Source: Marsupella aquatica
Taxonomy: Eukaryota > Plantae > Marchantiophyta
Assembly: GCA_973895155.1 (NCBI GenBank)
Contig: OZ316891.1
Span: 2,989,801-3,053,800 of the forward strand
DNA length: 64,000 nt
Direction: 5' to 3'
This document shows, one piece after another, positions 11,991 through 41,539 of the stretch. Every line of letters starts with the position of its first letter. Within the stretch, counting starts at the first letter, position 1. A model generated the notes under the pieces. That model saw nothing but the letters and a program-made list of their open reading frames with translations. It ran no database searches and had not been told where the DNA came from. The translations under genes and the position numbers were made by a program.

Positions 11991-12016
11991 TAAGTCTACA
12001 AAATAAAATACTAATC

Positions 12017-13845: not shown

Positions 13846-14190
13846 CACTAGAAGAATCCGAGGTGAACTGAGACCGCAATATATGACTCATTTTGGCTCA
13901 TGTGACTTCATTGTGACTCAACGTGACTTGACCCACGCTGTGACCCTTGGAGTTGCAAAAGTTGAGACCAAAAAATGGAAGTCACTATTGATACTGGGCT
14001 TTGCAACTTGCTTGATACCCATTTGTGACTGATCTGTGACTTTATTGTGGAGTCTAGCCTTGTTTCGACGTGACTGCAATATGACTTCAGCGAGTCACAT
14101 CGTAAGTCACATACATGACTTACCCGCATTCAACAACGACTAGCGTGTGACTATTTAGTGTCACAGGAGAGACCAATGGAGACCCTGGCC
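13846..14190. repeat. TIR and subterminal TGACT/AGTCA repeats of CACTA 1
   Basis: CACTA start followed by many tgact/tgacc/agtca copies in both orientations. Confidence 0.8.
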
Positions 14191-14700: not shown

Positions 14701-17700
14701 TTATGGATCCTCTATGAACTTGCTTGGCCATAATACCAAAGAACCTGCAGCATCTCCAAGTGTCTTTTGAGGAGGATCATCATTTGTGTTTGGAATGGGA
14801 AGGACAGCTTTAGGTTTCACTAGTAATGTGACTAACACTACTGAATAACCTGGGGGAATCCTCTTGCCATGGAACGTTGTGGAACCAACCTGCACTCTGG
14901 CAAATCCTACTCGTGTTCCACTCTCATCAACAACTAACAAGCCACTTTGTCCCTCAGCATTAGGTGCTTTCCCCACTTCCACCTTAGATCTTTCTGCCAG
15001 CACTGTTCTTGGAGGTTTGTATGAAACCTTTGACGTGACTCTGCTCCCACCAGCAGACTTGCTTCGTGTGCGCATGCTTCCTCTCTTCACAGTAGTGAAG
15101 CTAGGCTCAGTAGGTTCCTCTGTTAGGACTGTCACAGTAGCAGGTTCATCACCTGGGAGTGTCATACCAACTAGCTCTTTGGTTGGATTTATCTCAACAA
15201 GAGGCACACCTGTCATTGAGAATGATACATTCTGCAAATCATTTATCTCTGCAATGGAGTCAAGATCTACATAGCATGAATCTGGCTCAATGGTATCATT
15301 GTCATGCTTGCTGATATCCTCATTTGCCCCAACATTGATATCATCCACTCCCTTGCCAATGTCATCCTCATCCAAACATGGTTGACTGCCCTCTGTCAAA
15401 CAAGTTGCTTGTACAGACTGCAACTTTGTTGCCTCTAAATTACAGCGAGTATTTGCCAGGTTCTCATACTTCTTCTCTGTAGCACCTGTCTTATTCTCTA
15501 TGGACACAACAACCACAATATATGTTACTGAAAATAACACATTCAACAAACAATGTCAATTCAAACTATACATTTAATAATCATATCCCACACAGTTGTA
15601 AAGGCCTTACCTTCAAGCCTACATGTCGTTGGCATGCCAGAAGAGTGCATCAACTTTGCCACCTCAAGTGGTGATGGTGGAACTCCTGCAGAATTGGAAT
15701 CAATTTTATCTCTCACCGACACAACAGCTTCCATTAATGTCTTGAAGTTCACATGGAACAAGTCAGTCAATGAATTCAAACGTTCATTGATCTCTGGAAG
15801 ACATGTTTCGACAGCCTTCAAACGACCACTTATCTCTGTAAGTGAAGATCCACCTCCCTACATGACACAGGGGTATAGGTTCAATCACTCCATATGAAAT
15901 GTTGGGCAATATATGCACAATCAATGTTATATACAGTGTACACCTGAAATTCAACGCAGGTCATTCAATTACCAATCAGAACTCATATAACTTACATGCT
16001 TGGAGGATTCAGATGCACCCTCTTGAGCCCAGGTGTTCACAATTTCAGCCCTCAACTCTTCTTTTGAAGGGCTTTGCCCCAATTGGGCTTTCTGCACATG
16101 CATGGCAAACACAAGTTATCGATCAATATTCAGGGAACGTACACTAAAAAACAAAGTTTACATGTATGGGTTTACACTAAAAAATAGTACATAGTGTAGC
16201 ATAAATTACATAGCTAGGCCATTCATTCTTACCAAACGTTTAGCTGTCGGTGCAGTGCCGGTCCTTCCTGTCAGATTAGGGTTCTGAACACTCAACCTGG
16301 CCTCGGTCATCTGTGAACTCTTCTTTTTTGAAGCATCTGTTACAAAATAAGCTACTAACCTTGCCCACACTTTATCATCACAACTGGCTGGTGGAGGCAT
16401 ATCTGGCTTCTCCCCACCTTCCTTCCAAGCCTTATGCATTCTCCACCTCTCTTGCTTGATAATTTTACCTGCTGTACTCTCTAGGCAACCTATGTCCACG
16501 CCATCATCACTGCCCACATAATTCCATTTGGCAGCAACATTTTCACATACAGTCTTCCAATCTTTTGGATGCTGTTTTTTAAAATTAATAACACTCACAT
16601 CTAACCAACGCAATACTTCAGCTTTCAAATCAGCATGCCATCGGTTCTTGCGAGGACACTCAGCATCCACCCATTGTCTCTCATTCAACTTTACGTTCCC
16701 TTTCTTTGTCACCTCCCCTCGTGCACTGCTCTCGGTAGTACTGGGCGTTGTATTGGCCACCCCTTCATTCACCCTACCTGGGGTTCTGAAGCCACCTGGG
16801 AAAATACAATGCCATTCATGCTTGAGAACTACATATAGCAGAATGGATGACGGCAACATTCAATGCTTCACTTCAAGAAAAATTCTTCAAACATACATAC
16901 CTGTAGCTCTGCCTGTAGATGCCTGTGCAGGGACTGCACTCTGAAATTGTTGCGACCCTGGACCACCTGTCCAGCCTAGTACAGGGGCCGGATGATGTCA
17001 CTTTCTAGGTATGTGTGTGCAAACATATGTACTGAAAACTAAGTACAAACTGTAGGAAAACAACTGAACATTCACCGACATACCTGTCCCCCTTCCGTGC
17101 TGCATCTGCATAGGGGCATTAGTGAATACTTGAGTCGATGGTTCGACTGTCCAACCTGCACACATACATTTTCTATCATTATACATGTGCAGAGTCCCCC
17201 CCACGTGAATGGACTCCACATATAATGAGTTCTTCCATTGCTGACAAGATCAGACATTACCTGCTCCTCTTCCAGCGTTTGTAGGTACTGTATTTTGATA
17301 TCCCTGCCAATTACCTTCACCACCTTCCCAACCTTGTTCATTCCACGACCCACCACCATCCTCCCAACCTGGTTCAACCCATGTCTGTCCTTGTGGACAT
17401 TGGAACTGATCATTACTAGCATTTGCCCAATCAGGTTGGGCAGAATCTGCATGCAATGGCAGGTGGACAGAATTTCATGTTGTCTGAATCCAATACATCC
17501 CAAACAATGTCAAAAATTGATATGCAGTCTGAAATTCAGGAGTGCCATGCCTTCACAAAGAACTGGCATATAGATATATACTCACATCCCCACGGTTGAG
17601 GTGGACGTCCATACCCACGAGATTGTGGGTTTGGACCTGCTCTGCCTCTACCACGGGCATAACCTAGAGCTTGCCCCCTGCCATAGTATTGGGCACCAGC

Positions 17701-18407: not shown

Positions 18408-18563
18408 CCTACTGGACCACAAAAACATGTCATCTATGGTCACCCCGTATAACACAATGCAACCACAATCACCAGGCATCCATCCATACATCTGTGTTGC
18501 TTCAGAATTACTTTATTACACATCCTTCCCCTCACTAATGTCTATGCAAACAATTTACATTAC

Positions 18564-21500
18564 TCATGGCACAGGCACACTGTTGGCATCTGCATCTCTG
18601 AATTCGCCTCCTTCAGCAAATGCATCTACCCTTGTCACAGGAATGAAGTCCCCGCTATCATGAACTACAGGCACTTGGTCTGAACGCCGACGATCAAAGG
18701 CACTATGAGAGTGTAAATGAAACTCAAGGTTTGATCCTTCCATCCGGCGTTGCCTGGCCTGTTTATGACACACTACACGCCAACCTGGGGAGTCTTCCAC
18801 ATCCAGGAAGAAAGCTTGCTCCACCTGACTAGGAAACACAAATGGCTCAGACCATTCGGGCAATTTCCCTCTGAAATTGGCCAGCAAGAAACCGTCGTTG
18901 TCTCTCTTCATGGTAGCCCTGTTAGCAAGCCAATCCTGCCGCACCCATGAACCTTTCATAAGAATCACAGGACTGGACACCGCCCCATAGTCCAGAGCCC
19001 ATATGTCAACTAATTCTCCCACATATCCCATCTCCATCCAGGCCCTGTTGTGATTGTGGCTCTGTTGCTCAAATACAGTGATGAGCCCGCAGTCATTCGT
19101 CACCCTGTAGGCACTGTCACCATCCTTCACTCGGAAGTGATTCCCATATGCTCTCATCCGTTTGTAAGTCTTCACTTTCAGGCTAGGGGCATTAGACAGT
19201 AGGTAAACATCTGCATCCATGTCTGGGTGGGTCTCGTGATGCTCTCTAATTGCCACTCTGATCCACTCCATGAAACCTGGAAAAGTTGTTCCTGCAGTGG
19301 GATGGGCCGCCTTCAATGACTCATACTCCCTGAACGAACAACCACACAGCATTAGCTTGGGTAAACATGAACAGGCTGAAGGAGAAAACCACACGAACAC
19401 AACATTTAAGCTCATGAACTGGATTATAGCACATGTATGCACTCACTGTATCCAGGGTTCCATCACCACAGTGTTGTGCAATACAAAGTCATGTGCCAAG
19501 TCTCTCATAGATATGGTCAGGTTCTTTGTGGTTGCAGCCCCTTCCAGTACTTCACCTACCACCCCTTCCTCCTCATCAGAATTCCACACCCTGGTCTTCA
19601 CATGCTCATATTGTGCTATGTATTCGGTCAGAAATCCCAGAGTCTCATCCTTGATGTAACCTTTAGCCATGCTTGCTTCAGGTTTGTAATATGTTCTCAC
19701 GTGACCTTTGAGTAGCTTCATGTACCGTTCCAAAGGGTACAACCAACGAGCACTCACAGGCCCAAATTGGTGTAGCTCTTCCACAACATGGACAAGTAGG
19801 TGGGTCATGACATCAAAAAATGCGGGAGGAAAATAAATCTCCAGGTCACACAGCACCTGAGCGACATCTTCTGTCAGTTGTGGGAAGTGTGTTTCATCCC
19901 AAACCTTCACACAAATACGACGAAACACATCACTGAGTCGCATGATCACAGTACGAACAGGCTTCTGCAACAGGCCCCTCAGGCATAAAGGCAACACCTG
20001 TTGCATCAACATATGGTAGTCATGGCTTTTCATACTACCAAGCTTTCTAGTCATGATATGCTTCTTGAAAGCACTGCCATAGTTTGAAGGAACCTTCAAA
20101 GAACTCAACCTCTGCACAAATAGTTCCCACTCTGTGTCTGTCAGAACATAGGGCGCTTGGTACTTCAAGAGCACATCAGCTCTGTGGGCATGTGGCCTCA
20201 ACCAAAGATGGGGTTTCATTCCCCTCTGTTCAAGATCCAATCTCACTGAACCAGTGTCTTTCTCTCCACACAAGAATCTGAGTAGACTCTCACAAATATT
20301 CTTTTCAATGTGCATAACATCAATGTTATGTTTGCTTGGCTCAAACTCCTGCATCGTTGCAATGCAAAAGCGTCAGGAAATGCCTCAAGTTTAGTCTCTC
20401 TCTTCGAAATGAATGCACATGCTCTGAACCAAAACATGTATCCCAATTAGCATCAACTCCAAGAGGCTTACCCTCCAGTACTTGAGCTCCAAGTCCAATA
20501 TGCTCAGTCTTTTTACACCATATCGCTTTATTGGATCACTCACTCCATCTTCCCTGCCCCCTCGTTTGATATAGTCATCCCTCAGTGCTCCCCACTGCCT
20601 GATCTCCTCTTTGGTCACTCGTGCCGGGGGTCCACGTTGCTCAATCTCATTGCCAAAGTGTGCAATCAGTGCCTGTCTTTCTCTGTAAGGGTGATCTGTC
20701 TTTAGAAAACGACGATGGCCCATGTATATCACTTTCTGCAGGGCTCTGGAGTACTCACTGGTGACATTGCGCCCACAGATAGTACAAGCACAATATCCTT
20801 TTGTTGTTTGGCCTGATATCATCCCATGGGCTGGGTAGTCAGCTATAGTCAGAATGACAATGGCTCTAAGGATGAATGGGTTTAACCTCCCAAGCCTCTG
20901 TAGGACATCATATGTGAGAACTCCTTCCTCCCAAAGATTTCTCAATTCCTCCACTAGGGGAGCCAGAAACACATCTATGTTGGCAGATACAGCACTGTCT
21001 GGCCCTGGTATCAGTAGGACCATCAGAACAAAAAATCGCTTTGTAGTCATCCAAGGAGGAAGGTTATAATTCAAAATAGTTACAGGCCAGCATGAAAATT
21101 TGTTGTTCTTGTCTCCAAATGGGTTTACCCCATCCAATGACAGCCCAAGTCTGACATTCCTCGGCTCAGCAGCAAATTCGGGATACATCTCATCTATGAG
21201 TTTCCATTGCCTTGAATCTGCAGCATGTCGTTGTAGCCCATCATCACTTTTCTTGTCAGTTGCCCAAGTCATCATCTCCGAGATGGCACGGCTTCTGAAC
21301 ATCCGCTGAAGTCTGGGAATGAGTGGAAAATGACGAAGTACCTTGGCGGGAACCATAGACTTTCCTGAGTTCCGATACCTGTGCTTCCCACACTTAGGGC
21401 ATGTCAACGATTCTTTATACTCCTTTCTGAAAAGAACATGCCCATCAGGACAGGCATGGATCGAATCATAGTTCAATCCAAGATTAGATATGCATCTTTT

Positions 21501-22295
21501 TGCCTCGTACATGTTCTTGGGCAAAATATTACCATCTGGTAGCACAGTTGTTCGCAAGAATGCCAACAACTCAGAAACCAAAACGTTGGGGACATTGTGG
21601 TTGCCGCAAATGTTCAGGAACATGATGACAAATCCCAGTTTAGAACATTTGCTACCGGGGTACAAAGACTTCCTGCCTTCCTGTATTTGCAGGGGAGAGC
21701 CAAACATCCCATCATGCCCAGGGGTTTCCTGCCCTATCTCAAACTCATCAAGAGGCTCTTTGACAGGGGGCACACTTGCATTTGCAACCGTATCCTCTTC
21801 ATTGTCCAGCCCATCATGAAATGCATCCAAGTCTTGGAAGATGTCTCTCACCATCTCTTCCACATGAATTCCTTCATCACGTGGTGCTGCCTGAGCACCA
21901 TCCCGTTGGAGAGCTGACAACCCACAGAGACCAGCTACAACATTTTCAAATGCACCAGGCAGAACCTCACTTGCCCGTCTTGCAGCATTGGCAGCATCAA
22001 ATTCTAACCTCCACTCCTCGTCGGAAGAATCTTCCTTTGCAGGATCATTCCAAACTCGATGTCGTGGATCTCTTCCATGAACCGCGATATGCCGCCAAAC
22101 CTCATTCAGACCCCTGGTACGGGATCCTTGGCAGATTGCACAAGGACATCTCATCCTACTGGCTCCTGAAAGTCTGGTTCGTAACCTTTCACGCTGCCAA
22201 AGCTTATTATCATGGCGTGATATCCTTGTGGGATGATGCAAAGGCAGTGCCTGTGCCCTGGGCTGGGTCTGGGGAGGGTGGTGACCAGGGTGCAT
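18564..22295 (-). CDS. TnpD-like DDE transposase of CACTA 1 (exons ~22295-20472, 20348-19447, 19329-18564)
   Basis: N-terminal CPC..C..H..H, IHACP..C..C, LSLDGVNPFG, NYNLPPW, ADYPA, DVMHIEKN, KSHDYH, FPPAFFDVMTHL, WLYPLER, EPFVFPSQVEQ. Canonical GT-AG introns keep the frame; no disabling lesion seen. Confidence 0.93.
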
Positions 22296-22728
22296 TGTAA
22301 CAGGCTGGGAGCTCTGCAGTCATGGACAGCAGTGAACAAGGATGCCTAATGGTGGTATTTGTGTTCCATATATCCCTGACTGTATCTGCCAAAAGAGTTA
22401 ACATAACGTGTACTAAATTCTCACAAACCCTAAACCACCCCAAAAGAAAAAAACAGGTTCGCAAGTAGTGTACCTATTGTCAAGTGAATGACACAAAATT
22501 TCTAAATGTTGGAGGGTGTCACCACCTCCTCCGCTGTCCTCAAATGTACCGCCTCTGCATGTACGTTTACAGTGACACCCCCAGGCAGCAGGAAACAACA
22601 ATCCGCCAACAGTAAAATAAGCCCAACTGCCACCAACCATAACAAGGTACATTAGTTCAAAGATCACATTTATTTCAATGATCTGATTTATACAAAAAAA
22701 CTTGTGTCCAAACTGATGCTACTACTCC

Positions 22729-23601
22729 TCACTCTGATTCAGAATCGCTAATGACCCATTCCTCACTTGTTGTCTCATAGTCCTCTCTGTAAGGATCCTG
22801 ACCCTTCCGTGGCCAGGCCTCAAAAAGATCATAGTCCATTGGGTTTTGACGCTTCCCAGCTGCTACTGATTCCACAAGCCAAGCATATGAAACCACAAAC
22901 ACATTATGGGACATGACATAAAAGCGAATGTCTCCCTTCCCAAACTTGCGGCAGGCTTTGGGATATGACTTAGTAATGACATGAGTGGTGTCCTCTGTTA
23001 TATTCTCCTCCACTGTCCCACCTAGGTCAAGCACTGTGGACTTGTACACTTTGCACTTAACCTCTCCAATTCCCGCCTCCACAAATACCATGCTCAGCCC
23101 TTTCAGAATGGGGGTTGGTTGCTTCGTCTCCTCAGCCAACATACTCTTCAGCCTTGTAGAGCTCTGTCCTTTGTTGAGTACAGGTCCATATTGGAGATCA
23201 GCAAGCCGTGCCTTTGCTTCCCAGACTTCTTGTTCAGCCCAAGCTGATGCAGTAGCTTCTTCATCCTCCCACAACTCATATTGCTCAGTATCCTGTACAA
23301 TCTTATGTGCTATGGAATCTGTGATCCAAGAGGCCTCAACTACTTTTAGGCCTTGCTTAGTAATTGCAGAATTCATGTAGGACCATGACCACTTCTTTAT
23401 CACTGATAGCCATGTCCCTGCAACAACATGTGTAGTCTCTGGAGTGATGTCTTGAACTACAGTGCCATGGAGCTCAGAGAATCGTTTCTGTACAGTTGGC
23501 CAATGCACTTTGGTCAACCCATGCTGGCCATGGACCAAAATCGCTCTGACCCCTGTAAACACTGCTGGGTGGTCACACTTTCTACGTTTACCAGGCTCCA
23601 T
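22729..23601 (-). CDS. Tandem BRCT-domain protein (DNA polymerase lambda-like BRCT), CACTA cargo
   Basis: Two repeats: VFTGV..HGTVVQDITPETTHVVA..VVEASWITDSI..YEL and ILKGL..LGGTVEENITEDTTHVI..VVSYAWLVESV..YDL. Intact, intronless, ATG at 23601, acidic tail. Confidence 0.85.
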   Translation of the reverse strand: MEPGKRRKCDHPAVFTGVRAILVHGQHGLTKVHWPTVQKRFSELHGTVVQDITPETTHVVAGTWLSVIKKWSWSYMNSAITKQGLKVVEASWITDSIAHKIVQDTEQYELWEDEEATASAWAEQEVWEAKARLADLQYGPVLNKGQSSTRLKSMLAEETKQPTPILKGLSMVFVEAGIGEVKCKVYKSTVLDLGGTVEENITEDTTHVITKSYPKACRKFGKGDIRFYVMSHNVFVVSYAWLVESVAAGKRQNPMDYDLFEAWPRKGQDPYREDYETTSEEWVISDSESE

Positions 23602-24193
23602 GTACACACACCCTACGTGATGACAGTGAATTTTGGAAGAATGGGTTCACCTGACAATACAAGGACAACAAAATTCCTGCTTTTTGAGTTGATCTGGCCC
23701 ACTGGTGCTCAGGTCCGATTTTGATAGGTACAAGGGATATGTGAACAATACGTACTAGGCACCTGCACGGATGCAGGACATTGTTTGAATATATACTACA
23801 AAATCCATATCCGTGGTGAAATGAAGTGCAACCAACTTGTCATGGCACATACATATTTTGTTGTAAAGGAGGATACATTCAATGACAAACTTATAGGGCA
23901 ATTTGATTAATTGCATGCCTGATAATTTATACGCTTACAATTTAGAAGTCCTGTTTTAATTTAGCAGTGTGATGAAAGTGTTTATGAAAATGACCACTCA
24001 GCCTAAATACTTCCAAGAAGGCTTGTAAGGATAAGTTTGTATAGGCATGTACCCAGCCACTGACGCCAGAGCACAAGATAAGTGCTGCCTATATAAACTC
24101 GCCTACCCAACTCCTTTTCAAAATTGGAATCTCTGCAATCTCAAAAAATAGTACATCCACATCAGGTGCACTGTGCATGTACAATGTTCAGCT

Positions 24194-24874
24194 TCACAGC
24201 CAAGATATGTGATCTCTCACAGGAGTGCGCGAGGTAGGATCAATGGCATGGCGATGACAATAAAATATCCATCGATCAACACCATGTGCAGAGTGATCAT
24301 AGATTTCTCTGTCACAAGCATAACCCTCTGCTTGATGATCTTTCAGGCAATGATAGTGCCACATAGTGGGACACCTAGCACAGTGGACTATGTCAGTCCA
24401 GTAGTCATCATCATGCTCACCACATGCCTTGCACCTATGAAGTGGGCAAGCTGTGGCATGAGCAGGCAAACACTCAAAACAGAAAAATCTCACACAAAAA
24501 CGGTCTGGACATTTCCTAACATTTGCTGCAGCATCAACAGAGCCCTCATAGGACCCCAACTTCCCACACTGTGCACACTTAGCCTGCTTCTCCAAACAAT
24601 CAGTGCACATCCAGTCTCCCTGGTGTGTTGACGGGAGGCCCACCCCTGGACAGTTGTTTTCTGCAGCAAGGTCAGACTCCGGGTTGAGGTGGAAATGCCT
24701 CATGCAAGGGCCCTCACAAATGACCAGGCCCCCACCATCGTCACAAATGGCACAACAATGAGCTGCCTTCTGGAAAATCTGACTTGCAGAGAAGTTAGTA
24801 GCATCTGCCCCAAGTACACCTGTGTTTCTCACCTCTGTCACACGCTTTTTGGCTTGAATTTTAGGCCGTGCCAT
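24194..24874 (-). CDS. EDM2/NSD-type triple-PHD finger module, CACTA cargo
   Basis: CAICDDGG..CEGPCMRHFH..C..GL..WMCTDC..CAQCGKLGS..C...C..CPLHRCKAC..CARCP.MWH..CL..FYCHRHAID....TPVRDH follows, motif for motif, the PHD cluster of plant EDM2 (CAICDNGG..CEGSCLRSFH..CPLHKC..CRRCP..YC..H.ID...TPVRDH, from memory). Intact 226 aa. Confidence 0.85.
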   Translation of the reverse strand: MARPKIQAKKRVTEVRNTGVLGADATNFSASQIFQKAAHCCAICDDGGGLVICEGPCMRHFHLNPESDLAAENNCPGVGLPSTHQGDWMCTDCLEKQAKCAQCGKLGSYEGSVDAAANVRKCPDRFCVRFFCFECLPAHATACPLHRCKACGEHDDDYWTDIVHCARCPTMWHYHCLKDHQAEGYACDREIYDHSAHGVDRWIFYCHRHAIDPTSRTPVRDHISWL

Positions 24875-25572
24875 GCCTGCGCATGAGATAGACTCTACAA
24901 TTTAGCAGACTGCACAGAAAGTAAAATATATTTAGCATTTAAGGTACAAAGGCATTTGCTACTGCAATGAATTGGAATGGCCACACAAGGATGCAGAGCA
25001 CACATACTTTTGGTATGTTGAGCCCACACACAAAACTGATCCCCTAATACAATTTCTCCACCAACACCTCAATTTTAATTGTGGCTATGATTCACCAAAG
25101 GAGATCTGCAACAACATTTCATGCATTTGAATCACATACAATAGTCGTGACATGTAAAACAGGCATTCTTCGAAGAGGATTGGTATGAAGCAGTGTCATA
25201 AGGGTTGAAATTTATACATCCTAAATAGGTTATGATAGTGGCTGAGACAAATAAGTGAGGCATAAATCATTTTGCATATTATCACATGGCCCATTAATTC
25301 ATTCAACGTTGCAATGTTCACCAGGTTAAAGCAGTCATGAAAGCAGTCTTTCAATAGAGACTTTTATGCGAGTTTGCTAGCCTCTTAAATTAGGATATTT
25401 TGCTTAGTGCAGGCATAATAGGATATAAGTTATGTACTGTTGACCCTAAACCCTGGACCCAAAATTGCTCATACATCAAAATTTTAAGTAAATATCCTCT
25501 GTGTTGAAGTCAGAGTGTTAAGCTATAGGTCAATGGTATCTGGTCTGTGCATGCGGTGTGACAAGTGGTCCT

Positions 25573-26022
25573 CTAGAGCATGTGATCCAAACATGTGTAG
25601 ACACCAAAGTCACCGGTGGTGGGGTCTGGGAGGGCAGGACAAGTGACATCACCAGGCACACTGCAGGATGGCAAGTGGTTCCAGATGATACATTGTGCTC
25701 TGTGCAAAAATCGGCATCCAAGAGAACGGTCATCCAATTCTGGGCCAGAAGCCCTACAGGCAGGACAGTCATATTGGCAACTGTGTACACACCCTTGGCA
25801 CCTAATTTGTGGCGGGTCATGTACAAGAGACACAAATACCAAGGATGTCGGGAAGGGTACTGAAGCAGGTAGAGGCCGGCTGTAGTTGTTCCTAGAAACA
25901 ACAGGGTACTCAAAGTACCATGCAGACTGGGCTGGAAGGATCCCAAGTCTGACATACTCAAGGCGCAACATCTCTGCCTTGCGTGCAAGTCGCACATGTT
26001 CAGCGTTGCGGGTCCTCACCAT
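25573..26022 (-). CDS. Small Cys/His-rich PHD-like zinc-finger protein, CACTA cargo
   Basis: ATG-started 149 aa with CQGC..C..CPAC..C..CIIWNHLPSC..C..YTCLDH spacing. Same strand as the other cargo ORFs. Confidence 0.55.
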   Translation of the reverse strand: MVRTRNAEHVRLARKAEMLRLEYVRLGILPAQSAWYFEYPVVSRNNYSRPLPASVPFPTSLVFVSLVHDPPQIRCQGCVHSCQYDCPACRASGPELDDRSLGCRFLHRAQCIIWNHLPSCSVPGDVTCPALPDPTTGDFGVYTCLDHML

Positions 26023-27030
26023 AAGTGTTGCTTTCGTTGTGATGTCCTCTGTTCACGTCCTTTGATGAGCAAGGTGAGCAGGAGGTCGACTTGCCTCGCC
26101 AACAGCAACCACCTAAACTAATCAGTTCCCACTCATTGTCTTGGTTCCAACTACAGGTCATAGTATACACATAGCATGAAACGTGCATAGTACATATTTG
26201 ATTCTGAGTTTATGAGTTTCCTAAGACAAAGAGCTTGGTGATAAACCCATATTCTCGACGGACATGTATATCAATCATATTAAACTCCTGTTTTTTCATC
26301 CAGAAAGACCGAAAGTCTCACCTTGCAGGTTGCAGCAGAGAGAAAATTCACTGGTTGTCGTGTTGTGCAAGTGAACCTCCACTGATGCCCCGGTGTAGCC
26401 CCTCAGATGCAGGTGACACTTACCAACTCCCAAGTTGCCTGGTCTAACAGAAAATGCTTATATCTTCAGAACTTTATAGAGCAAGTACATGATCACATAC
26501 TTCTGGATCTATTCATATTTGGAACTCTTGCCAACTACAACTCCCATTATGCACAAGCTCACATCAATAGAGAAAGATACAGAATGCATACTTACTATGG
26601 CTCTAAGCACCTTCACTACCTTGTTGAACCCAGTCCTGAAGTCTTTTCAGCGTGTTTGTTGTGCTGTCTCCTTTGGCACCCAACACCTTAGTCCTTGATG
26701 TAACAGAATGCGATTTTACAAGTTAGATGCTTTGGAACCTTCTATGGTCTTAGCTGAATTGATGTCATCGTAAGTGGTGAAAGACAAGGAAGACGAAAGC
26801 TGGTTGAAGAGCTGTGGACAACACACTAGCATGAAGTGCTTCAACCAATCCACTGCCAAACGGAACTCTTACACAGTCACATTCTTTTAGTAAACAAAAA
26901 CTCAGTCAAACTTCAGAATCAAAGTACAGACTCTGAAGGACCAAAGGAGGATGTTGTGAGTTTCTCTGTTGTTTAATGTGTTACCCTTCTAGTTTCGAAG
27001 TTAGCAAATGCTGAATAATGTGTCTACCAA

Positions 27031-27373
27031 ATCTTCAAAAAGAAGCCCACCACAATTAAGAACTTCGGTATCTGGGTCCACGTATCAGAGTCGTACAGGT
27101 TATCACAACATGTACAAGGAATATTGTGATACCACAAGAAACGGAGCTGCAGAGCAGATGTATGATGAGATGGCTTCTTGTCATAGAGTTCGGTTCCCTT
27201 GCATCTAGATCATGAAGACTACGACAGTCCCTGTCTCTCTGTGCAAGCGAGAAAGTACCAAGCAGTTCCATGATTCAAAGATCAAGTTCCCCTTGACGTA
27301 CTGCAAGATTCAACCTCCATTGCGAAAGCTAAAGAAGACTTACAAGGCCACCAAGCCCAACACAATTGTTTGA
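27031..27373 (+). pseudogene. RPL18A: Captured C-terminal fragment of 60S ribosomal protein L18a (eL20)
   Basis: Translates [16 protein letters not shown]/(frameshift)[70 protein letters not shown]...KTYKATKPN, matching the plant L18a C-terminal two-thirds. One frameshift and one stop. Confidence 0.92.
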
Positions 27374-28563: not shown

Positions 28564-28724
28564 GATGCATGTCATTAGTGGGGAGGGATCTTAGCAAAAG
28601 CAGGGGAAAGCAAGGGAACTTGCGGCTAAAATCAGCTGAAAGATGCATGTGATTAGTGGGAGGGATCTTAGCAAAAACAGGGGAAAGCAAGGGAACTTGC
28701 GGCTAAAATCAGCTGAAAGATGCA
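28564..28724. repeat. Tandem duplication, ~78-bp unit x2
   Basis: gatgcatgt(c/g)attagtggg(g)agggatcttagcaaaa..cggctaaaatcagctgaaa repeated at 28564 and 28642. Confidence 0.9.
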
Positions 28725-30027: not shown

Positions 30028-30112
30028 TCTCAAACAGCTCAACTCTCTGTAACCGTAGCTCAAAGAGCTCAACTCTCAGTGACCCCAGCTCAAACAGGTC
30101 AACTCTCAGTGC
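30028..30112. repeat. Tandem repeat, 30-bp unit x~3
   Basis: ctcaaacagctcaactctc... repeated with period 30. Confidence 0.8.
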
Positions 30113-33100
30113 CCGCACTTGAAACTCAATTTGCTGAAACTCAGAAGGTCAAAGTGACTATTGCATGAGTAAGAACACCCTTTACCTCACTGGTGCCGAA
30201 AGCTCTCACAGGGGCTGTCACATTTCTCAGAAGTACTCTGTCACTAAACAAGAAACATGTGAAACTTGACTCCAGCTCCGGCTCCAAGTAAACAAGCTGG
30301 ACTGCCGCGACAAGTTCCTGGTTCCTAATCCTAGTTTGCAGCTGAACGTTGAAGCAACTCTCATAAAGCTTTTTATCCATTGGCAATCACTACCTTATCA
30401 TTTCAGCCTTATTATCTCATTGTGCAAACCTGGATGTCACGGGGCATCTTGGGAGGTGAATGCAGCTAAGCAAAAGCTACAACATCTATTGCAAGCCGGT
30501 TCATGCAGATGGCAAGTTAAAGTCAAGCTTGAAATACACTTACAGCTGGCCGAATGTCAATAGCGCTCACTGTAAAAGGTTGAGATGTTGTCAATGACGG
30601 TAGCGCATTTTCTTATCCCTTCCACCTCACCAGTTGTAGCCCACACTCATGTTTAGAAAAATTTGCGCTGGTGAAACTTGGCCGGAACCTGAGTCAAAAA
30701 CAGCTTCACAGCACAGAGAAGTCAACCAAACTTGCAGCCGCGAGGTCACATAGCAAAGATAGGGGATTGCAGCCTTACATGGGCTGATGCAGCACCAAGC
30801 CGCTCAAACTGAAGCTGCGTAGTAATCCGTAGCAGTATGTGAAGCTGAGCAACAATCCCCCGCTATTGCAATGTGATGGCAACTCAATCTTCAACTCACT
30901 TCCAACCCAGCTCCACTTGAAAGCCTCCTAGTCGGACTGCAATGTACATCCAAAGGCGATCAATGCAATGTCTCCAGGCCTGGAGTCCCACTTTGCAAGA
31001 ACAGTCCAAATGCACACCAAACCGCAATGAGAAGCTCCTGGTTCTCGATCCCAGGTTGCAGCTGAACGTCAAATTGACTCTCCCAGCTTGAAGGAACAAG
31101 TGCCTCCTACAGTGCCTTGCGCAGTGGCAAACGCCTCCTGCAGTGCCTCCCACAGTGCCTATGATCAATGCTAAACACATACAATGGCTGAATGTTGCCT
31201 ACGACTCACATTCTGTTTTGTCTATGCAACACCCTAAACTCGCTCTTCTTGCCTCCTACTACTCCCATTGCAGTCGGGATTGCAATTTGTCAATGCAGCT
31301 TCAGCCTTAGTGATCGACAAACTGCCCCCTTTTTTCCCTCGCAAAGAATGCGCGATCAGCTCCTCGTCCGCAAATCCAAAGGAATCCAAGGCGCAATGGG
31401 AGTTGGCGTGAAGGAATCCATTAAACCCTAAACCTGGTTTAATGTGCCCATATTTGTTTTCAACCGTCAGATCATCCTTTGATTAAGTTTACGACCGTCA
31501 GATCCTTGCTTGATTAATTAAGGTAAGGACTGTCACAAGTTCTTATGCTCATTCCATGAGCATAGTGTGTGGGGTGCCATTATCAGATATGTCTAATTAT
31601 AACATGTAGACATGCCAAGTACATGGAGGTTCCAGCTGCATTCCCAGTTCTTGGTGATTTTGAACCTTTAATTAAAGGAATCTAGATGGAACAATGTGTG
31701 GAGGGGGTACATGACGGTATGTATGCATGGCATGGCGTGCAATAAGTAAAAATAACCTGCCCTTGCATATGTGAGAGTTAGAGATAACCAAGGAGATAAC
31801 TTCAAATGTACCCATTTAGACACAAAAATGAGTCCAATTAATATTACATGCATGCCATTGTGGGACCCTAGCTAGTTGGGATTATTTTGTTATGTTGTAA
31901 CACTTGTAAACTTGTGGCATACATATGTTGTAATTCAGTCTACTCTAATGTAGAGTATATATTTGAGATCTGTTAGCATTGACATTGACCAAGGACCTTT
32001 ACTTACCTTGTAGAGTTGCGTACTCACACAATATCCCGAGGGCATCTCCTTTAGTCCCATTGACAACTAAGAAAATTAGGATATATCCTAAATGGTATGT
32101 GTTGGGCGGGGTCAAATGTGGTTAGATTGTGGTGTTAAACCCTAAGGCTCTCTTACATATATAACGCTCTATTGTAGAGGGAGTCACTTATACAACTTCA
32201 TTCTTGTTGGCTGAACTTAGTTATAGTTGCAACTTCCCCAATAGTTATAGAAATGACTTCCCAAGAATTCTCCAAAACTCAGTCCACAACTTGTAACTAT
32301 AATGACACCCAAAACCTAGGAGTCACAAATTTTGCAAGGTCTCATTAGAGTCACTTAAGGCAGGGTCTCAGAATGGGCCGGTTTCTTCTAGTGGAGAGAC
32401 CACTTGACTTGGCTATTGCTGGATGACACCTCCAGCGCTAGCAACAAAACAAGTGGATCAGCACCAACAGGCTGAGCTAAATGAATCCAACATTGCACAT
32501 CTCACATTTTGGACTTTTTAATGAAGTGGGCACCTCACTGCGCTGTCAACCATAGCTCAGACACACCTCGCTACAGTGAGCTATCGATCGACTTTGTGAT
32601 TGCATAGTAAATTTGGATCTTGCTTTTTCAGTTCAGCCATACATGGTTTTGTCCTTATACTTTCGTACACGATGACACCTCCAAAACTAACTAAGTTAAC
32701 TTATTTTTTGAAGACTGATTAAGTTAATTGCAATTTCAAAGTTAGGGCCTGCACAAGGATGTCTGTGTTTTTTCCACTTTGAGTGAATCATGTGTATGGT
32801 AAGAGACCATAACTATGAAAGACTAAAGATTCCAAGCAGACTGTTGCCTGGAGTAAAACAACATGCATGCATTGGAGTATGAAAATACATATATGGCTCA
32901 AATTATGTATTTGTTTCTGCTCTTAACAAAGGTCATCTTAAGTCGTGTGCCTAACCCATACATTTGTACAATTACAAATGTGACTGGAAATTGGGCAGTT
33001 GAATGATATCATTCTCAGTCCCCACCACTGTCACGTAAGATACAGGTATTCGAATGTGAATTCAGGCTATATGCAGACAAGACAATATAAAGGGCCACAT

Positions 33101-33377: not shown

Positions 33378-34303
33378 ATGCCTTCCAAATGGAAGCGTGA
33401 ACCTGTCCCCCTTCCAACTTCCCAGTGTGCTCCCATCTTCCAAGGGGTCAGAGTTTTTTTTGTCCCAGGTATTCAGAGTGCAAGATTGGATATCCTTAGG
33501 AGAAAACTCATTGAGTGTCATGGTACAGAGACACAATCTCAACTACAGGACACTGAAGTCACCCATATTATTGCAGAAACATGGGAACATTGTCTGAAAA
33601 TGGCATCTTGGTCAATTTTCTATGACAAAGTCTTCTTGAGGCATGTCAAAATACTTTCAGCAGAATGGATGTCTGACTCCCTTAGAAAAGGGAGTGTCCA
33701 AGATCGTGATGATTACAATTTGTTTGAGAGCAAGTACAATAGCGTCCAAATGATGAAAGACAGTTGAGATTGGCACAAGGCTCGTAGAATTGCAGGGAGA
33801 GATGGGAGTAGGGTTCCGTCTATTGACCAGATCACAAAAGTATACAACAACATTATCCCATATGAGACAGAACCCATCCCAGACCGTACCATGTTCAGAG
33901 GTGTGAGGGCTGTTATACTTGACAAGTCTATCAAGCCATATAGGGTCTGTCGTTTCAAGAGGGAGATCAGTAGAAGAGGTGGTACAGTGATTGAGAAGCT
34001 CACTAATGAGACCACCCATCTCATTGCTCATTCATATTCTAAGGCATGCCGAGAGTATGGAAAGTCCACAGTACGATGGCTCATCACACATGGGCTGCGT
34101 GTGGTCTGCCCTGAATGGGTCAGGCAGTCACTTTCAACAATTATGCGATTAGATGAGCATTAATATGATTTATATGAAATATGGCCAACAAAGCCATTCA
34201 TTCCCTAGACGACCCAGAATATGTTACTTTTGAGTTCCAGACCACGGATGAAGAGTTTTTTGATAGTGCGTATGATTCTATTAGCCCTAATGATTATGAA
34301 TAA
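33378..34303 (+). pseudogene. Tandem BRCT gene of CACTA 2 (premature stops)
   Basis: IFQGVRVFFVPGIQSARLDILRRKL..VTHIIA..ILSAEWMSDSL..YNL and MFRGV..GGTVIEKLTNETTHLIA..VVCPEWVRQSL..*YDLYEIWP are in one frame. Stops at 33765 (TGA) and 34161 (TAA); a further lesion near 34206 precedes an acidic tail like that of 22729-23601. Confidence 0.82.
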
Positions 34304-34711: not shown

Positions 34712-37700
34712 ATGGATCAGGCAAATGAGGATGGACAGTTGGGGCAAAGGAATCAGAGACATACCAATGAACTGCAACTCCCTTTGCATCACCCACTGAG
34801 GATTACACGTCATGACTCCAAGTTGTGGAATAGAGAGGTCCTTAGAGCAAGCCGGGGCAGAAATGCCCGGATGAGATGCCCCTGCATGCAATGTCGAGGA
34901 TACCACTCGATGACCCTGAACCAAGTGCATTCTCATCTTCAAAGGCATGGAAGACATCCAATCCGCAGGGTGTGGAATGTGCCAGAGGAAGAGGATTCAT
35001 CGGATGATGAATGGAGAGCAGATTTTGAAAATGTGAATACAGCAAGACGCTCTGCATTCTTTCATAACGTCACTGGTCATGCAGGCAACAATGCCGAAGA
35101 TGAGTATGTTCCACAGGGAGGTCCCGAGACTTCTAATGAGGACGGGGCAGATGTCCCTAGGATGGTTTCAGACATTTTTCAAGACCTGGATGCACTTTAT
35201 GAAGATGCAGAGGCACAGGGGGACGAAGAACCATACATGCATGTTGCAGATCCATCGGACCAAGAAGAGTTTGACATTGGAGAAGGAGCTGGAGATCATG
35301 GTCAATTCTTGGGAACTGGGGCCTACTTGGAGGAAGCTACGTCCCCATTGTATGGTGGTGCAAATTGCTCCAAACTAGGGTTCATAGTGATGTTCCTCAA
35401 TATATGTGGATGTCACCGTGTGCCCAACATATGTGTAACAGAGTTGTTGATGTTCCTACAGAGGACAGTACTACCCGCTGGAAACATTGCTCCTAAGAAC
35501 ATGTATGAGGCAAAGAAGGTGATGAGCAAACTTGGTTTGAATTATGTGTCCATCCATGCATGCCCAGATGGCCATGTACTTTTCAGAAAAGAATATGCTG
35601 ATTGCCTATCCTGCCCTATCTGCGGAAAGCACAGATATAAGAACGTGGGGAAGTCAACTCAACCTGCTAAGGTCCTACGGCATTTCCCTCTCATTCCAAG
35701 ATTGCAGCGCCTCTATAGGTGTCCATCCATTTCTAAGATGATGACTTGGACCTCTGATCAGAAGAGTACAGATGGTTTGCAACGTCACGTTGGAGATTCC
35801 AACCACTGGAAGTACATAGATGAGAAGTGGCCGGACTTTGCAGCAGAGAGCAGAAATGTGAGGTTTGGTCTAAGCCTTGACGGTGCTAATCCTTTTGGAG
35901 ACAAGAACAACGTGTATTCTTGCTGGCCAGTGACTTTGATAAATTATAATCTCCCGCCTTGGATATCCACCAAGCGTTTTTTTGTGATCTTGTGTCTTAT
36001 GATTCCCGGCCCAAACTCTGCTATAAGTGCAAACATAGATGTTTGGTTGGCCCCTGCGGTGGAGGAATGGGTTACTCTATGGACACATGGAGTTATGACA
36101 GTTGATGCACTTTGTGGACCTGGTAGACCGAGGACATTCAACCTACATGCAATGTGTGTTAATTCAATAGTAGACTACCCTGGACATAGCATGATATCTG
36201 GGCAGGTAGGGAAGGGATATATCTGGGTTGCACACGATGTGGCCCAGATGTTACATCTGAACGGTCCGTTTCCTTGGGCATCAAAAGGCAGACAATGATG
36301 GACACATCATTGGAGTATTGGAAGGTAACATTTGCATATTCACTTGTACTCAGTGAACCTCTTCAGATCCTATGCACAACAGTTTTTAGTTCTTGTGTCT
36401 GAACCTAATTGTGGCAATCATGCGTACTTCATGGGTGCAGGATTTTGAGCCAAGCAAACATAACATTGATGTAATGCACATTGAGAAGAATGTATGCAAA
36501 AGTCTTTTGAAGTTTCTGTCGGGGGACAACGATACTGCAGCAGTACGAAAGGACCTTCAGGAGAAGGGCATTTGTCCTCAACTTTGGCTGCAAGAATCCC
36601 AGAATAGGCCGGGTGTGGTTTTCAAGTACCAAGCTCCATATGTTTGCACCCAGAATGAGTGGAACACAATTTTGTCTAGGCTGAGTTCGTTCACAGTACC
36701 CTCTGGGTACGTTGGAGCCTTTGCAAAGCATATAAGGAAGAAGAAGTTGGGAAGCATGAAAACTCATGACTTCCATGTTATGATGCAAGACATTCTACCA
36801 GTATGTTTGAGGGGATTGATGCAAAAACCAGTTCGTAATGTCATTTTGAGACTGTGTCAGATCTTTCGTCGTATTTGTGTGAAGGTGTGGGACCCTACAA
36901 CATTTCCTCAGTTAAAGGCAGATACTGTGTGTGTGCTTTGTGACTTGGAGATTTATTTCCCGCCAACATTTTTTGATGTCATGACTCATTTGATCATCCA
37001 TGCGGTTGAAGATCTGGGCCACTACGGCCCAGTGAGTACAAGGTGGATGTATCCGATGGAACGATACATGAAGTTGCTAAAAGGCCATGTACGTACTTAT
37101 TACAGGCCTGAAGCAAACATGGCTCTCGGTTACATTCAAGAAGAGACCTTGGGGTTCCTTACAGAGTACATGGCTGGTGTAAACAGTGTTAGGAGCAGGG
37201 TGTGGGATGCTGAGGAAGAAGAGGGGGTGGCTGGAGAGGTTCTTCAAGGCGCTTTTAATTCCTTGCAATTGTCTGCAGAAGTTTGTGATGCAGCACACTT
37301 ATATGTCTTACACAATACAGTCATGATGCAACCTTGGTGGCAGTGAGTACTCATGTTTCCGCACCCTCCCTGCATTCCTTCTTTATTCATATCCATTTTG
37401 GTAGGATATGTACATTGTATTGAGAAATTGTTCTCATTGTCATCATGCAGGGAATACAATGTGCAGAAGGTCGCCCAATTAGGGTTAAATCACCAGGCAT
37501 TCCCTACTTTTCCTAAGTGGATCAGGACAACAATTCGAGAGCATAGCAGGCAGAACCCAAACATGGATAGAGATGTTCTCCTCTTGTCTGTGCCTCCCAG
37601 ACGTATTGTACAGCGGTATAAACGGATGAAAGCATATGGGAATCAGTACCGTGTGCATGATGATGAGGACAAGCATTTAGTGACATATAATTCGGGGGTA

Positions 37701-38207
37701 ATATCTGTGTTTGAGCATATAGATGCTCAGAGCAACAGGGGCTGGATGGAGATGGGATATGTTGGGGAGTTGGCAGACATCTGGGCACTGAATTATGGGA
37801 ACACATCACAAAAAATCATCCTAATGAAAGGTTCATGGGTGAAGCCAAATTGGCATGGGCCAAGAGCGACCATGAAACGGGATATGGATGGCTTTCTAAT
37901 GGTCAATTTTAACCAAAGACTGGCAGAATGGATGGAGCCTTTTGTGTTCCCAAGTCAAGTCGAGCAAGTATTTTTTTTAGATGTGGAGGAGTCTCGTGGT
38001 TGGCGTGTAGTCTGCCATAGCTCACCTAGAGTTCGAAGGATGGAGGGTACTAAAATAGAGTTCAGTTTGGATGCACATGGGGCCTTTGAACAGCCGGCAG
38101 TAGACGTTGTACATCGGGGCCAGGGGACCAGGGAGTACATCCCCTTGACAGTGAGACAGACTTATGAGGGAGAGGTTGAAGCTGACATGGACGAAGATGA
38201 TGAGTAG
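34712..38207 (+). pseudogene. TnpD-like transposase of CACTA 2 (frameshift plus internal deletion)
   Basis: Same motifs and intron positions as 18564-22295 (LSLDGANPFG, VDYPG, DVMHIEKN). Frameshift at ~36220 and loss of the segment between ..SERSVSLG and IKR.. (~36278) that holds YMGHRRFL in element 1. Confidence 0.9.
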
Positions 38208-38319
38208 TTGGATTTTTTTTTTGTGATCGAGTAGGTGACTCTTTGAAGTGCAATGAGTAGCAAGTATGAGCAATAAATGGATGACTTGTTTGTGCAACCG
38301 CAGTAACTTGGTGAGTAGG

Positions 38320-41300
38320 ATGCTAGACAAAAATGGCATGTGTGAGTATGAGAAGCAGGCTGTGAAACACCGAGCATGGGTTCGCCAATGTGCCGCAGCC
38401 CTGTTGGGTGATGTGCAAGAGGCTATTTCGGATATGTAAGGGACTGTGCATAGTATGAGCTGTATGTGTATCTCGTTGTGTGTGTCTATTCATTGTGTAG
38501 CTTCTGTAATGGACTACTACATACATAACCTGTGTCGAATTTCATGTGGGTGTTGCAGTAACAAAAGTATCCCAACACTGTCGAAGCGGGGTCAGTGTAG
38601 ACGGAAGACCTTCTGTAATCTTGACGGACCTAGGCGACGTAGTGAGAGGTTGACTTCAAAGACCCCTATTTCAATGGCTGAATCTCCTGATAAGAATGAG
38701 GTAGAGGATTGCATGCCTGATGTTGGTGATACAGAATATGATCCTGACCAAGATCCAAATGCAAGTGCTAGCATGTCAGAGGATGATGACATGCCAAATC
38801 CTACCCCTCCACCAAAGCCTGCTTGCAGTAAGGCAACTGGGGGAACTTCTATGAGATCTCGACCGACGCCCTCTGTATACTTAGCCCAAGCCCCAAGCAA
38901 CAGCAATTGCAATAACCCGCAATTTAATGCCCCCAACTATAACTGGCTGCAAGCACGACAGGGGGGCCAATAACTATGGCGGGTCTATGGGTGTAGGCCC
39001 TTCTGCCAGCTATATGGGTCCAAGTTGGCCAAGTAAGTGTGAACATTTTAATTTGTTTCATGTGGATAAGTGTATTTTGAGCTCAAATTGGCTGATTGTG
39101 TTCCTCAATAGATGTGGGTCTGAGTATGACAATTTGCCTGGTCTGATGTGAATGGCAGACCCAATGTGGGACCGTATGCAGCCCACAAATATGTATGAAG
39201 GAGGGTCAATGGGGCCATCGGGGCAATTCATGGGAGGTCCTCTCCCAATGGCGACAGGATGGCAAGGTTATGGTGGGTATGGTGGGAACCCAGCACCAGC
39301 ACCAGCACCAGCACCTTCAGTCCAACCGACACAGAGTCTGCGGAGGGGAGGAGGTATTTTCTACAGCAGTTCTAAGTAAAGTATTGAAATCAGGTAGTTC
39401 ACAGAGACCATATGATATTAATGGTGTTAATTGCGTTTCTCTTTTCAGATAACCCTATCACACCCTGCTCAGGCCATGGGGGAGCAATTCCTGGATTTGC
39501 AACACCAAGTAGTGCGTCAGGGAGCACTGAGAGAGGTGAGAATGTGAAGCTGGGTACTGTTGAAGTTGATGATGAAGGCCGGATCACAACGATGAGTGCT
39601 GGAAAGAATAGATGGCACAATGACTTGCGAATGGAGTGTCTACGGTGGTTGGACATTAGCTGTACTAACTTTAATTGTCAACATCCATCTGACTGGGAAC
39701 TGGTTTGCAAATATATGCGAGACAAGTGGGAATATTTGGGGAATTCTAGGAAAGGAGTCAATGCTGATTGTCTTGCAGAGTATGGACGAACTATCATGAA
39801 AATAGAGAGGCATCGATTGCACAAAGCATGGATTGCTGATGGCAGTAAACCACATGCTGAAGCACCCCCAAGTGTTCATGTAGAACAATGGGCTCGACTG
39901 AGAGGGACATTCCTGTCTAGGGCAGGACAGGAGAAGTCTACACAAATGATTGCTGCTAGAAATGCAGTGAAGAATCCTACGCTTACAAGGAGGGGAGGAC
40001 ATGCACCAGTAGTAGCCAAATTGGTTGGGTTCCCATGCCATACATATCTTTATTTACATTTCAATATTTGAGTGGACTGTATGTAGTTGTAGCAGCACGC
40101 TACGTTTAGGCAAGATTGACATTGAGAAACGTGTCTTGCAATGTTTATGTGCTCCAGAAAAAGCTTACTAGAGAGAAACCCACAAAAGAGGAGGTTGTGG
40201 CAGAAATCAAAAGGGTAAAGTGTGATGAAGGCAGCATTGGATCTAAACAGGTAATTTAGAAGCATTATTGATGGACAATCTGTTATACAGTCCTTCTTCA
40301 GATGTACAGTATTGTCAGCCCTTATGCAATTGTAAAATTGCTGAGAAGAGCCGTTTGGTTGGTGTATGTGATATATAGCAGGGAGCAGTGTCTACCCTTA
40401 CAGAGATATCAGACCGGTTGAAGACTGTGGAGAATGCTTGGCCATCAGTAGAGACTGAGATCAAGAGTCAATTCAAGGACATAGCTAGTCTTCTTCAAAG
40501 CCAAGGATCAACCTTAAGGGAAGTACAAGCTGAACTACGTGAGTTGCGGGCGATGCACATTGCTGGCAGGGTTGAGCACCCAATTGCACATCCATATGAA
40601 GAGCCTGCAAATATTGTGGAAGTTGTGCCTACAAAGAAGAGTGGTACGTGTCATCTGAAATCATGTTTAGTGTAGTGTGACTTTACCTAGGAATTTGAGG
40701 TTCATGGATGCAGGATGGTTCAGGTTCAGGTTCTAGACCCTGAAGGTTTGTTACATTGTGTATCAGGTGATCAGATTGCAGTGGCTGCAGCAGATCCAAA
40801 GATCATCGAACCTGGTACAATTGTCATTGAGACTAAGTAAATGTTGGTTTGAAGACTCTGTCTGGCCTGTTAATGTGGTTGAGTATCTACGCCATGTACG
40901 TTCAATTAGTGCAAACTTGATGGTTTGTTGACAGCTTTAGTGCCTATATGCTTAGTTGTAAATGAAGGAATTTGTGGCTACTATTGAGGTACAGAGCCAG
41001 CACAGGAGGAGGTGCGCATACCAAATCCAGCAGGCAGGAAGAGGAGACGAAACTTAGAGGCTACCAAATTTTCAGATTCACAGGAGAAGCAGACTGATGA
41101 CAATGATGTGATTTTCATAGACTCTCAACCTCCCCCAGGTATTGGAGATGAGTTTTCTCAATCCCCACCACTGATGAACATGGGAAAGATGAGGACCAGA
41201 AACAGTGGGAAGGAGACTTTGCCTTACAAGGCACCAAAGAAGAAGAGGAATAACACTTCTCCAAAAGGGACAGCAGTGAGCATTGTAGCACAGTCTTCTA

Positions 41301-41539
41301 GGCTAATGGCAATTGATAATTCTGGTGTTTGTGTTGGGCAAGGCATACTTCAAATTGAAGCAAGTACTTTCCATGGAAAGAAGGTACTTGCTGATCATGT
41401 TGTGCTGTTGTTGACTGCTGTCAGTAAGCCCAAATATCTTCTACCCTTTCCAAACAAGGGAGATGATCCGCCACACATCCATCTTGTGGATGCTGTGGAA
41501 TCATTTGTGATGTGGCCTAAGAAATTTGTAGAGTGTTAG
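38320..41539 (+). pseudogene. TnpA-like multi-exon gene of CACTA 2, probably decayed
   Basis: MCEYEKQAV.., NRWHNDLRMECLRWLD..WARL..EKSTQMIAAR and FHGKKV..LPFPNKGDDPP..LVDAVESFVMWP are collinear with 14701-18407. Confidence 0.72.

Follow-up and report, generated by a model that had tools for sequence, protein, structure and literature searches.

The 64,000-nucleotide (nt) stretch analysed here, referred to as the window (contig OZ316891.1, positions 2,989,801 to 3,053,800), carries on its minus strand an 18.5-kb CACTA element, element A (13846-32393). It belongs to a genuine multi-copy family of CACTA elements whose accessory genes are conserved and include two recognisable host-derived interaction modules. 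Upstream of its TnpD transposase gene, and on the same strand, lie three ATG-initiated, stop-free open reading frames (ORFs) of 290, 226 and 149 amino acids (aa), which encode two BRCT repeats, an EDM2-type block of three PHD units and a Cys/His-rich protein, respectively. On balance we favour the view that these are three accessory genes of a multi-copy element, likely selected and likely to link the element, as adaptors, to host chromatin and break repair. That selection has kept the cargo is very probable, since both the reading frames and the proteins are conserved, and this agrees with the preliminary description of this DNA, which had called the cassette a retained accessory toolkit. Reader or adaptor domains are present in two of the three genes only, and at the level of sequence the residues for unmethylated H3K4 and for phosphopeptides are changed.

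Conservation of the cassette

The preliminary description placed three intact ORFs in a row upstream of TnpD, and their coordinates, strand and open frames were all recovered, and 433 nt separate the last cassette stop from the downstream TnpD start at 22295. It also called the ORFs intronless, which holds in that the reading frames are unbroken by introns, however, pyrimidine-rich AG acceptor-like sites lie near 24910, 23651 and 22386 and precede the PHD, BRCT and TnpD starts by 35, 49 and 90 nt, respectively, and this fits a shared leader spliced to each ORF. Spm elements are known for alternative splicing as well as split genes (PMC13547354; this and all other papers cited are used for the accessible portions of their text).

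Confinement of the ORFs to this copy had been named in advance as a ground for rejecting the proposal; instead, relatives were found together with copies in further runs. The cargo relatives are nine Logan proteins from contigs shorter than 3 kb, grouped in two clusters for the 290-aa ORF (54-60% identity), five for the 226-aa ORF (37-82%) and two for the 149-aa ORF (56-57%), and they cover 97-100% of their queries with the same length or the same start motif. The stretch or part of it is contained in nine runs (six organism codes, seven studies), five of which contain half or more, and the best-holding run may be the source sample; runs X8 and X9 hold short low-depth pieces only and were left out of the evidence. 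Contigs on element A number 747-13,639 per run (four runs) and occur in all four identity classes. Local depth spikes far over neighbouring bins were seen at 24234-24888 in run X7 and at 18.2-22 kb, 23.3 kb and 24.6 kb in run X5, which suggests that other abundant families have PHD, BRCT or TnpD segments in common with element A.

Every listed indel of the cassette span falls in a spacer, namely 7 of 7 in one set (among the best 12 of 142 rows) and 12 of 12 in another (among the best 12 of 23 rows). Of the 3294-nt span, the 1290 spacer nt hold all 16 distinct listed sites and the 2004 coding nt hold none. Substitutions within ORFs account for 14 of the 40 listed, where 20.5 would be expected, and half of them (7/14) are synonymous against an expectation of 21-29% (p 0.03-0.09); among those listed, the synonymous share is 3/5 in the BRCT ORF, 1/5 in the PHD ORF and 3/4 in the 149-aa ORF. 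TnpD has 2 synonymous changes among 7 listed, so purifying selection is not visible there from the counts, and most non-synonymous changes in the PHD ORF and TnpD may be private to this copy. At the protein level, conservation in the PHD alignment is concentrated in the Cys/His positions, of which 24 of 38 are invariant compared with 28 of 188 other residues.

The pairing of a BRCT gene with TnpD is found twice in the window. Element B (32394-42033) is a second, deeply diverged CACTA element in opposite orientation, whose 5' end is gone and which the 5' end of element A abuts. Its BRCT gene lies about 0.5 kb upstream of TnpD, in the same place and orientation as in element A, which indicates that the pairing predates the split of the two families. 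The two BRCT genes share 30% identity over 262 columns (E 3e-35), with repeat 1 nearest repeat 1 and repeat 2 nearest repeat 2. Non-synonymous and synonymous proportions (pN/pS) between A and B are 0.47/0.69 for BRCT, 0.39/0.82 for TnpA and 0.22/0.76 for TnpD, with synonymous sites near saturation and the BRCT pN near that of TnpA. Only in the element A family have the PHD and 149-aa genes so far been seen linked to a transposase.

A recent neutral Pack-CACTA capture of host exons, with decay still to come, is the reading that these data bear on most directly. Gene-fragment capture is common in the 5' regions of CACTA elements (PMC8978399), and element A did take a piece of RPL18a. The cassette, in contrast, has relatives as low as 37% in identity that retain a start and stop of their own, its listed indels all lie in spacers, a BRCT gene recurs in a second diverged family and the PHD protein falls in a separate clade. 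Near-identity to host genes, which the preliminary description would have taken as a sign of such capture, was not observed for the PHD ORF (best 32% among sampled host genes). Recent neutral capture of the cassette is therefore largely refuted and very improbable, and the RPL18a piece alone fits Pack-CACTA.

The contrast that had been drawn between a broken RPL18a piece and an intact cassette stands for this copy, where a frameshift and a stop interrupt the piece, but is weaker across the copies at large. The stop is missing from essentially all listed depth at its site (27206 T>C) in four of four runs and seems private to this copy, which makes the piece a weaker control for the contrast. 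The frameshift is absent from most depth in X2 and present in X1 and X4, with reads of the host RPL18a possibly mixed in. The piece may thus be less broken in other copies.

Element A, its ends and its neighbours

With its two GT-AG introns of 123 and 117 nt removed, TnpD reads through 1163 aa without an internal stop, in agreement with the earlier impression of an apparently intact gene, and the protein contains the Pfam domains Transposase_21, DUF4218 and DUF4216 (E 1.8e-70). The TnpA-like gene downstream probably has more exons, up to about 18.5 kb, and its recognised parts are 39-45% identical to their counterparts in element B. Two papers, PMC13547354 among them, describe TnpA-like proteins as restricted to flowering plants. 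If the host is a non-seed plant, the TnpA-like genes at 14701-16859 and 38455-41539 would widen the known range.

Membership of CACTA (En/Spm) is indicated by the TnpD domains, a terminal inverted repeat (TIR) that starts with CACTA, and subterminal repeats together with the TnpA-like gene. Both ends of element A (13846 and 32393) open with CACTAGAAGAA, and TGAC(T/C) motifs reach 15 per 400 nt at the 3' end and 5 at the 5' end against a window mean of 1.8. The TIRs, which had been described as matched, do start with CACTA and agree exactly over 11 nt and at 22 of 30 positions overall (counted on the terminal letters); they are, however, imperfect, and the 11-nt match alone is within chance, with three such CACT[AG] pairs among the 124 x 134 sites of the window, two of them elsewhere. 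We place the junction at 32393 because a contig of run X1 aligns from exactly 32394 after 411 letters unlike the window. The 5' region of element A (27800-31500) holds degenerate internal duplications and tandem repeats of 77 and 30 nt, with joints that differ among copies. An Rfam search of 13.5-42.1 kb gave no match.

Table 1. Positions of the main features of elements A and B within the window
Feature	Positions	Strand	Remarks
3' TIR, element A	13846..13875	-	starts CACTA; 22/30 nt match to the other end; dense TGAC(T/C) subterminal motifs next to it
TnpA-like coding exons	14701..16859	-	Transposase_24 E 1.5e-4, under the Pfam cut-off
TnpD transposase	18564..22295	-	exons 22295-20472, 20348-19447, 19329-18564; 1163 aa, open
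Two-BRCT ORF, 290 aa	22729..23601	-	two BRCT stretches, E 2e-13; linker of ~50 aa between repeats
EDM2/NSD-type triple-PHD mini-protein, 226 aa	24194..24874	-	three linked atypical PHD units, Cys/His kept
Cys/His-rich conserved ORF, 149 aa	25573..26022	-	no family match, no PHD signature
3' part of RPL18a (eL20), captured	27031..27373	+	E 5e-18; antisense to element A; frameshift and stop in this copy
5' TIR, element A	32364..32393	-	no target site duplication with the 3' end
Decayed two-BRCT gene, element B	33378..34208	+	two stops (33765, 34161); the second TnpD follows directly
Damaged TnpD, TnpA-like exons and CACTA end, element B	34712..42033	+	TnpD 55-58% identical to A; deletion and frameshift; end at 42033

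The remainder of the window holds other transposon remains and repeats. A Gypsy-type retrotransposon whose gag and pol frames are long and open occupies 3361-9384 and many copies of a 20-nt repeat follow at about 9.7-11.8 kb. Identical 140-nt direct repeats at 44050-47881 surround about 3.5 kb that include a Bet v 1-like ORF (45832-46305, E 6e-6), possibly a very young element with short long terminal repeats and unusual cargo. Further along lie a Harbinger-like DDE_Tnp_4 remnant (49218-50546), a copia reverse transcriptase remnant (53290-54180) and a long inverted duplication (60851-64000, about 85% identity).

The cassette proteins and their possible roles

The EDM2-type triple PHD assigned to the 226-aa ORF is borne out by matches to three NSD-type PHD models (E 5e-5 to 4e-3, each under the Pfam cut-off), by the PDB matches NSD2, NSD3 and AIRE, and by a profile search with 564 representatives at E <=0.001, in which the named long matches are EDM2 and EDM2-like proteins of liverworts, a lycophyte and flowering plants. 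The ORF holds the PHD block alone and the full EDM2 architecture (DNMT1-RFD, long C-terminal region) is absent, whereas the host EDM2 P0024 has the RFD. Its best identity to proteins longer than 500 aa is 32%, in a sample of host EDM2-like proteins that lacks the host's own EDM2. Ten short PHD proteins form one clade (support 99/98) separate from 17 host EDM2 and EDM2-like proteins in a tree of 29 rows, from which five truncated short proteins and most long matches were left out; a quick tree of 62 rows gave the short-protein group a support of 92. Several of the short relatives lose homology part-way, as decaying transposon copies would. An origin of the PHD gene from a liverwort EDM2-like paralogue was rejected in an approximately unbiased (AU) test (p 0.02), although long branches weaken this test. 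The 11 loci from a metagenome scan are all distant EDM2/NSD-like sequences, and TnpD, BRCT and the 149-aa ORF had no match at any of them. Other short EDM2-like PHD proteins of about 270-390 aa occur on metagenome contigs (L002-L007, P0039 and P0047), and P0039 and P0047 are placed inside EDM2 in the tree, an independent truncation.

In AIRE, D312 binds H3R2 and D297 binds unmethylated H3K4 (PMC2261226). When aligned with AIRE PHD1, the acid equivalent to D312 is D or E in 14 of 14 short PHD proteins. A start of the form MAR.K at residue 1 is present in 7 of 15 short PHD proteins and in 0 of 121 long relatives. This start resembles the N-terminus of histone H3. It is a possible histone-H3-tail mimic, which we take as a lead only, and a predicted complex between the PHD protein and its own N-terminal 31 residues scored 0.31 (mark 0.34).

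For the 290-aa ORF, the tandem BRCT label is confirmed by the two BRCT stretches, and the best PDB matches are Rad4, BRCA1, DNA ligase IV and Rtt107, which do not name a donor gene. A likeness of the repeats to plant DNA polymerase lambda was rejected, as human Pol lambda, the one compared, gave E 0.01, far under Rad4, BRCA1 and ligase IV. A Ser/Thr-Gly at the end of strand 1 is the motif of phosphopeptide-binding BRCT domains, and the BRCA1 serine binds the phosphate. Only one of eight BRCT repeat types, not that of element A's copy, has Ser/Thr at this position, so a constitutive protein adaptor appears likelier than a phospho-reader and the protein is probably not a canonical phosphopeptide reader. 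The fold model of this ORF has a pLDDT (predicted local distance difference test) of 32, and Atlas matches for the second BRCT are generic BRCT clusters only, under 0.9.

The third ORF had been labelled PHD-like, a label that the sequence does not support. Neither the 149-aa ORF nor its relatives match Pfam or NCBIfam, a profile comparison (hhalign) with the PHD alignment gave a probability of 0.1%, and the conserved ligands (C78 H80 C82 C86 C89 C111 H116 C128 C144) are spaced without the H-x2-C and the final C-x2-C of PHD fingers. Its fold model has a pLDDT of 57 with the cysteine-rich half modelled poorly; the best fold match has Z 4.3, Foldseek gave none at E 0.001 and Atlas none that was usable, which does not by itself make it a new fold. 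The protein is probably a small metal-binding partner. A prokaryote scan with this ORF and viral-contig scans with BRCT, PHD and TnpD returned no locus.

We propose the following sequence of events. Transcripts of the cassette genes would probably share a 5' leader that is joined by splicing to a different acceptor for each gene, in the way that Spm produces TnpA and TnpD. The PHD protein, an EDM2-type reader freed from the rest of EDM2, would attach to H3 tails where the element is silenced and there rival or replace EDM2, helping transcripts to run their full length as far as TnpD, some 10 kb from the 5' end. EDM2 itself binds H3K9me2 chromatin and suppresses proximal polyadenylation with ASI1 and AIPP1 (PMC7529245), and it influences transposon silencing (PMC3632883). 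Where TnpD breaks the DNA, the two-BRCT protein would bind other proteins as an adaptor. That the cargo works in such adaptor roles to the benefit of the element has, in our judgement, slightly the better of the case, while the exact read-through mechanism via the PHD protein is doubtful. Heterochromatin evasion, target choice and repair steering, the roles first suggested for the cassette, are putative. Our tentative broader proposal is that a CACTA lineage of long standing has made gene families of its own out of parts of two host surveillance pathways, with the PHD protein hijacking heterochromatin read-through and the two-BRCT protein steering break repair.

Alternatively, the PHD protein could tether the TnpA/TnpD complex to marked nucleosomes for insertion-site choice while the BRCT protein helps to seal the insertion. 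The same conservation data apply here, PHD fingers occur in Rehavkus transposases (PMC6446971) and in 5 of 1846 active MULE (Mutator-like element) clusters (PMC12973397 Table S6), and this copy of element A sits amid other transposon remains; however, the PHD protein is a separate protein with no fusion to the transposase, and we regard this route as unlikely. It is less likely again that the genes are conserved without direct help to transposition, through host benefit or as a 'camouflage' by host-like sequence. Captured sequence has been suggested to serve as camouflage (PMC13317346, PMC8978399), and the RPL18a piece occurs at high depth in the same runs, but camouflage would require DNA likeness to a host gene, whereas the PHD ORF shows low protein identity to the sampled host genes and what is kept in the cassette are frames and zinc ligands, not nucleotides.

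Several observations weigh against the adaptor reading that we prefer. Element A is flanked by TCA and GAG, so the 3-nt target site duplication (TSD) is missing, which counts against this copy and not against the CACTA membership of its transposase. Depth over 29.8-32.4 kb is far below that of the core in four of four runs and, together with the missing TSD, this means that the 5' end of the copy is probably rearranged or hybrid. Some database relatives of the cargo could be host genes, on contigs too short for context, and none of the contigs listed joins TnpD coding to cassette coding in another copy. The nominal P of 3e-7 for the indel distribution is too strong because the rows are not independent: they are a best-supported subset with several rows from one contig, and run X5 entered both sets. 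Of six listed substitutions in the PHD ORF five are non-synonymous, and the counts alone give no purifying selection there. The BRCT gene of element B is broken by two stops, and in the 1 kb of 5' sequence left to this element neither the PHD gene nor the 149-aa gene could be traced. Finally, the acidic stretch before the first PHD Cys (AIRE D297) is replaced by a QKAAH/QKSPH-type sequence in 14 of 14 short PHD proteins, while acids near this position are kept in EDM2 proteins and in the three liverwort paralogues checked. As the K4-binding acid is replaced, specificity may differ from that of EDM2, and the short PHD proteins may have lost the EDM2 specificity.

Some of these points would also fit a foreign origin of the PHD and 149-aa genes, as part of a separate mobile element or module lodged in the 5' part of the CACTA element, with the BRCT gene alone native to the lineage. 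To the missing TSD, the structurally variable 5' region and the leftover 5' end of element B can be added the depth in run X7, which is 1,900-6,400 over parts of the PHD ORF and about 10 over the 149-aa ORF. All genes nevertheless share one orientation and an even spacing, coverage is unbroken from TnpA to 27 kb in four runs, and no further transposase ORF was found at 26-32.4 kb. We consider a nested module quite improbable.

If the adaptor reading is right, it bears on how full-length transposase mRNA can come from an element that is long and methylated, and on whether cut-and-paste elements control the repair of their own breaks. The cassette proteins are small and open to direct assay.

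Relation to known systems

The preliminary description knew of no CACTA family with this combination, and the published full texts searched describe no PHD or BRCT genes in a CACTA element (the search did not extend to Repbase or to most subscription journals); literature on 'CACTA' and 'BRCT' gave unrelated papers only. Neither PHD nor BRCT is mentioned in the accessible main text of bioRxiv 10.64898/2026.08.24.746577, whose supplements might list such domains, or of PMC13547354. The same is true of PMC6431247, PMC12973397 and PMC13317346 and, for PHD, of PMC8978399, again in the main text accessible. In Table S6 of PMC12973397, which covers 1007 plant genomes, there is one RTT107_BRCT_5 match in 775 active CACTA clusters, and PHD occurs in MULEs only. 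The giant En/Spm elements of Chondrus crispus, at 16-20 kb with 4-5 ORFs, could match element A, since the domains of their ORFs are not named in the accessible text (PMC6431247). Pack-CACTA elements are alike in capturing host fragments in the 5' region, but such fragments are usually close to host genes in sequence, unlike the cassette of element A.

On the host side, EDM2 (of the ASI1-AIPP1-EDM2 complex) and NSD-type arrays have the triple-PHD block in common with the 226-aa protein, down to a C-terminal DHI-x-W/F. Host EDM2 proteins are 600-1600 aa long with DNMT1-RFD and other regions, whereas the element A protein is short, forms part of its own clade and has lost the acidic stretch before the PHD block. 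BRCA1, Rad4/TOPBP1, ligase IV and Rtt107 likewise have two BRCT repeats, while those of element A are stand-alone and transposon-borne. Rehavkus and MULE transposases are cut-and-paste elements that encode a PHD finger mostly fused to a MULE-type transposase (PMC6446971; PMC12973397 Table S6); element A, a CACTA element, encodes it in an EDM2-type gene apart from the transposase.

En/Spm of maize and Arabidopsis EN/SPM resemble element A in their CACTA ends, subterminal repeats, TnpD domains and a TnpA-like gene head-to-tail downstream, but element A has three further genes upstream of TnpD. TnpA is a sequence-specific anti-silencing factor (bioRxiv 10.64898/2026.08.24.746577; PMC13547354). 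The VANDAL MULEs (VANB/VANC) are DNA transposons with separate accessory ORFs as well, and VANC is thought to derive from the host chromatin regulator MAIN (PMC13547354). They belong to another superfamily, however, and VANC binds DNA motifs, whereas the cargo of element A resembles, by sequence likeness, a histone reader and a repair adaptor. Conserved stand-alone histone-reader and BRCT genes in a CACTA element would represent a different route of host manipulation, with counter-silencing by histone mark, unlike the DNA-motif-based action of VANC and TnpA, in a plant DNA transposon that brings its own repair adaptor.

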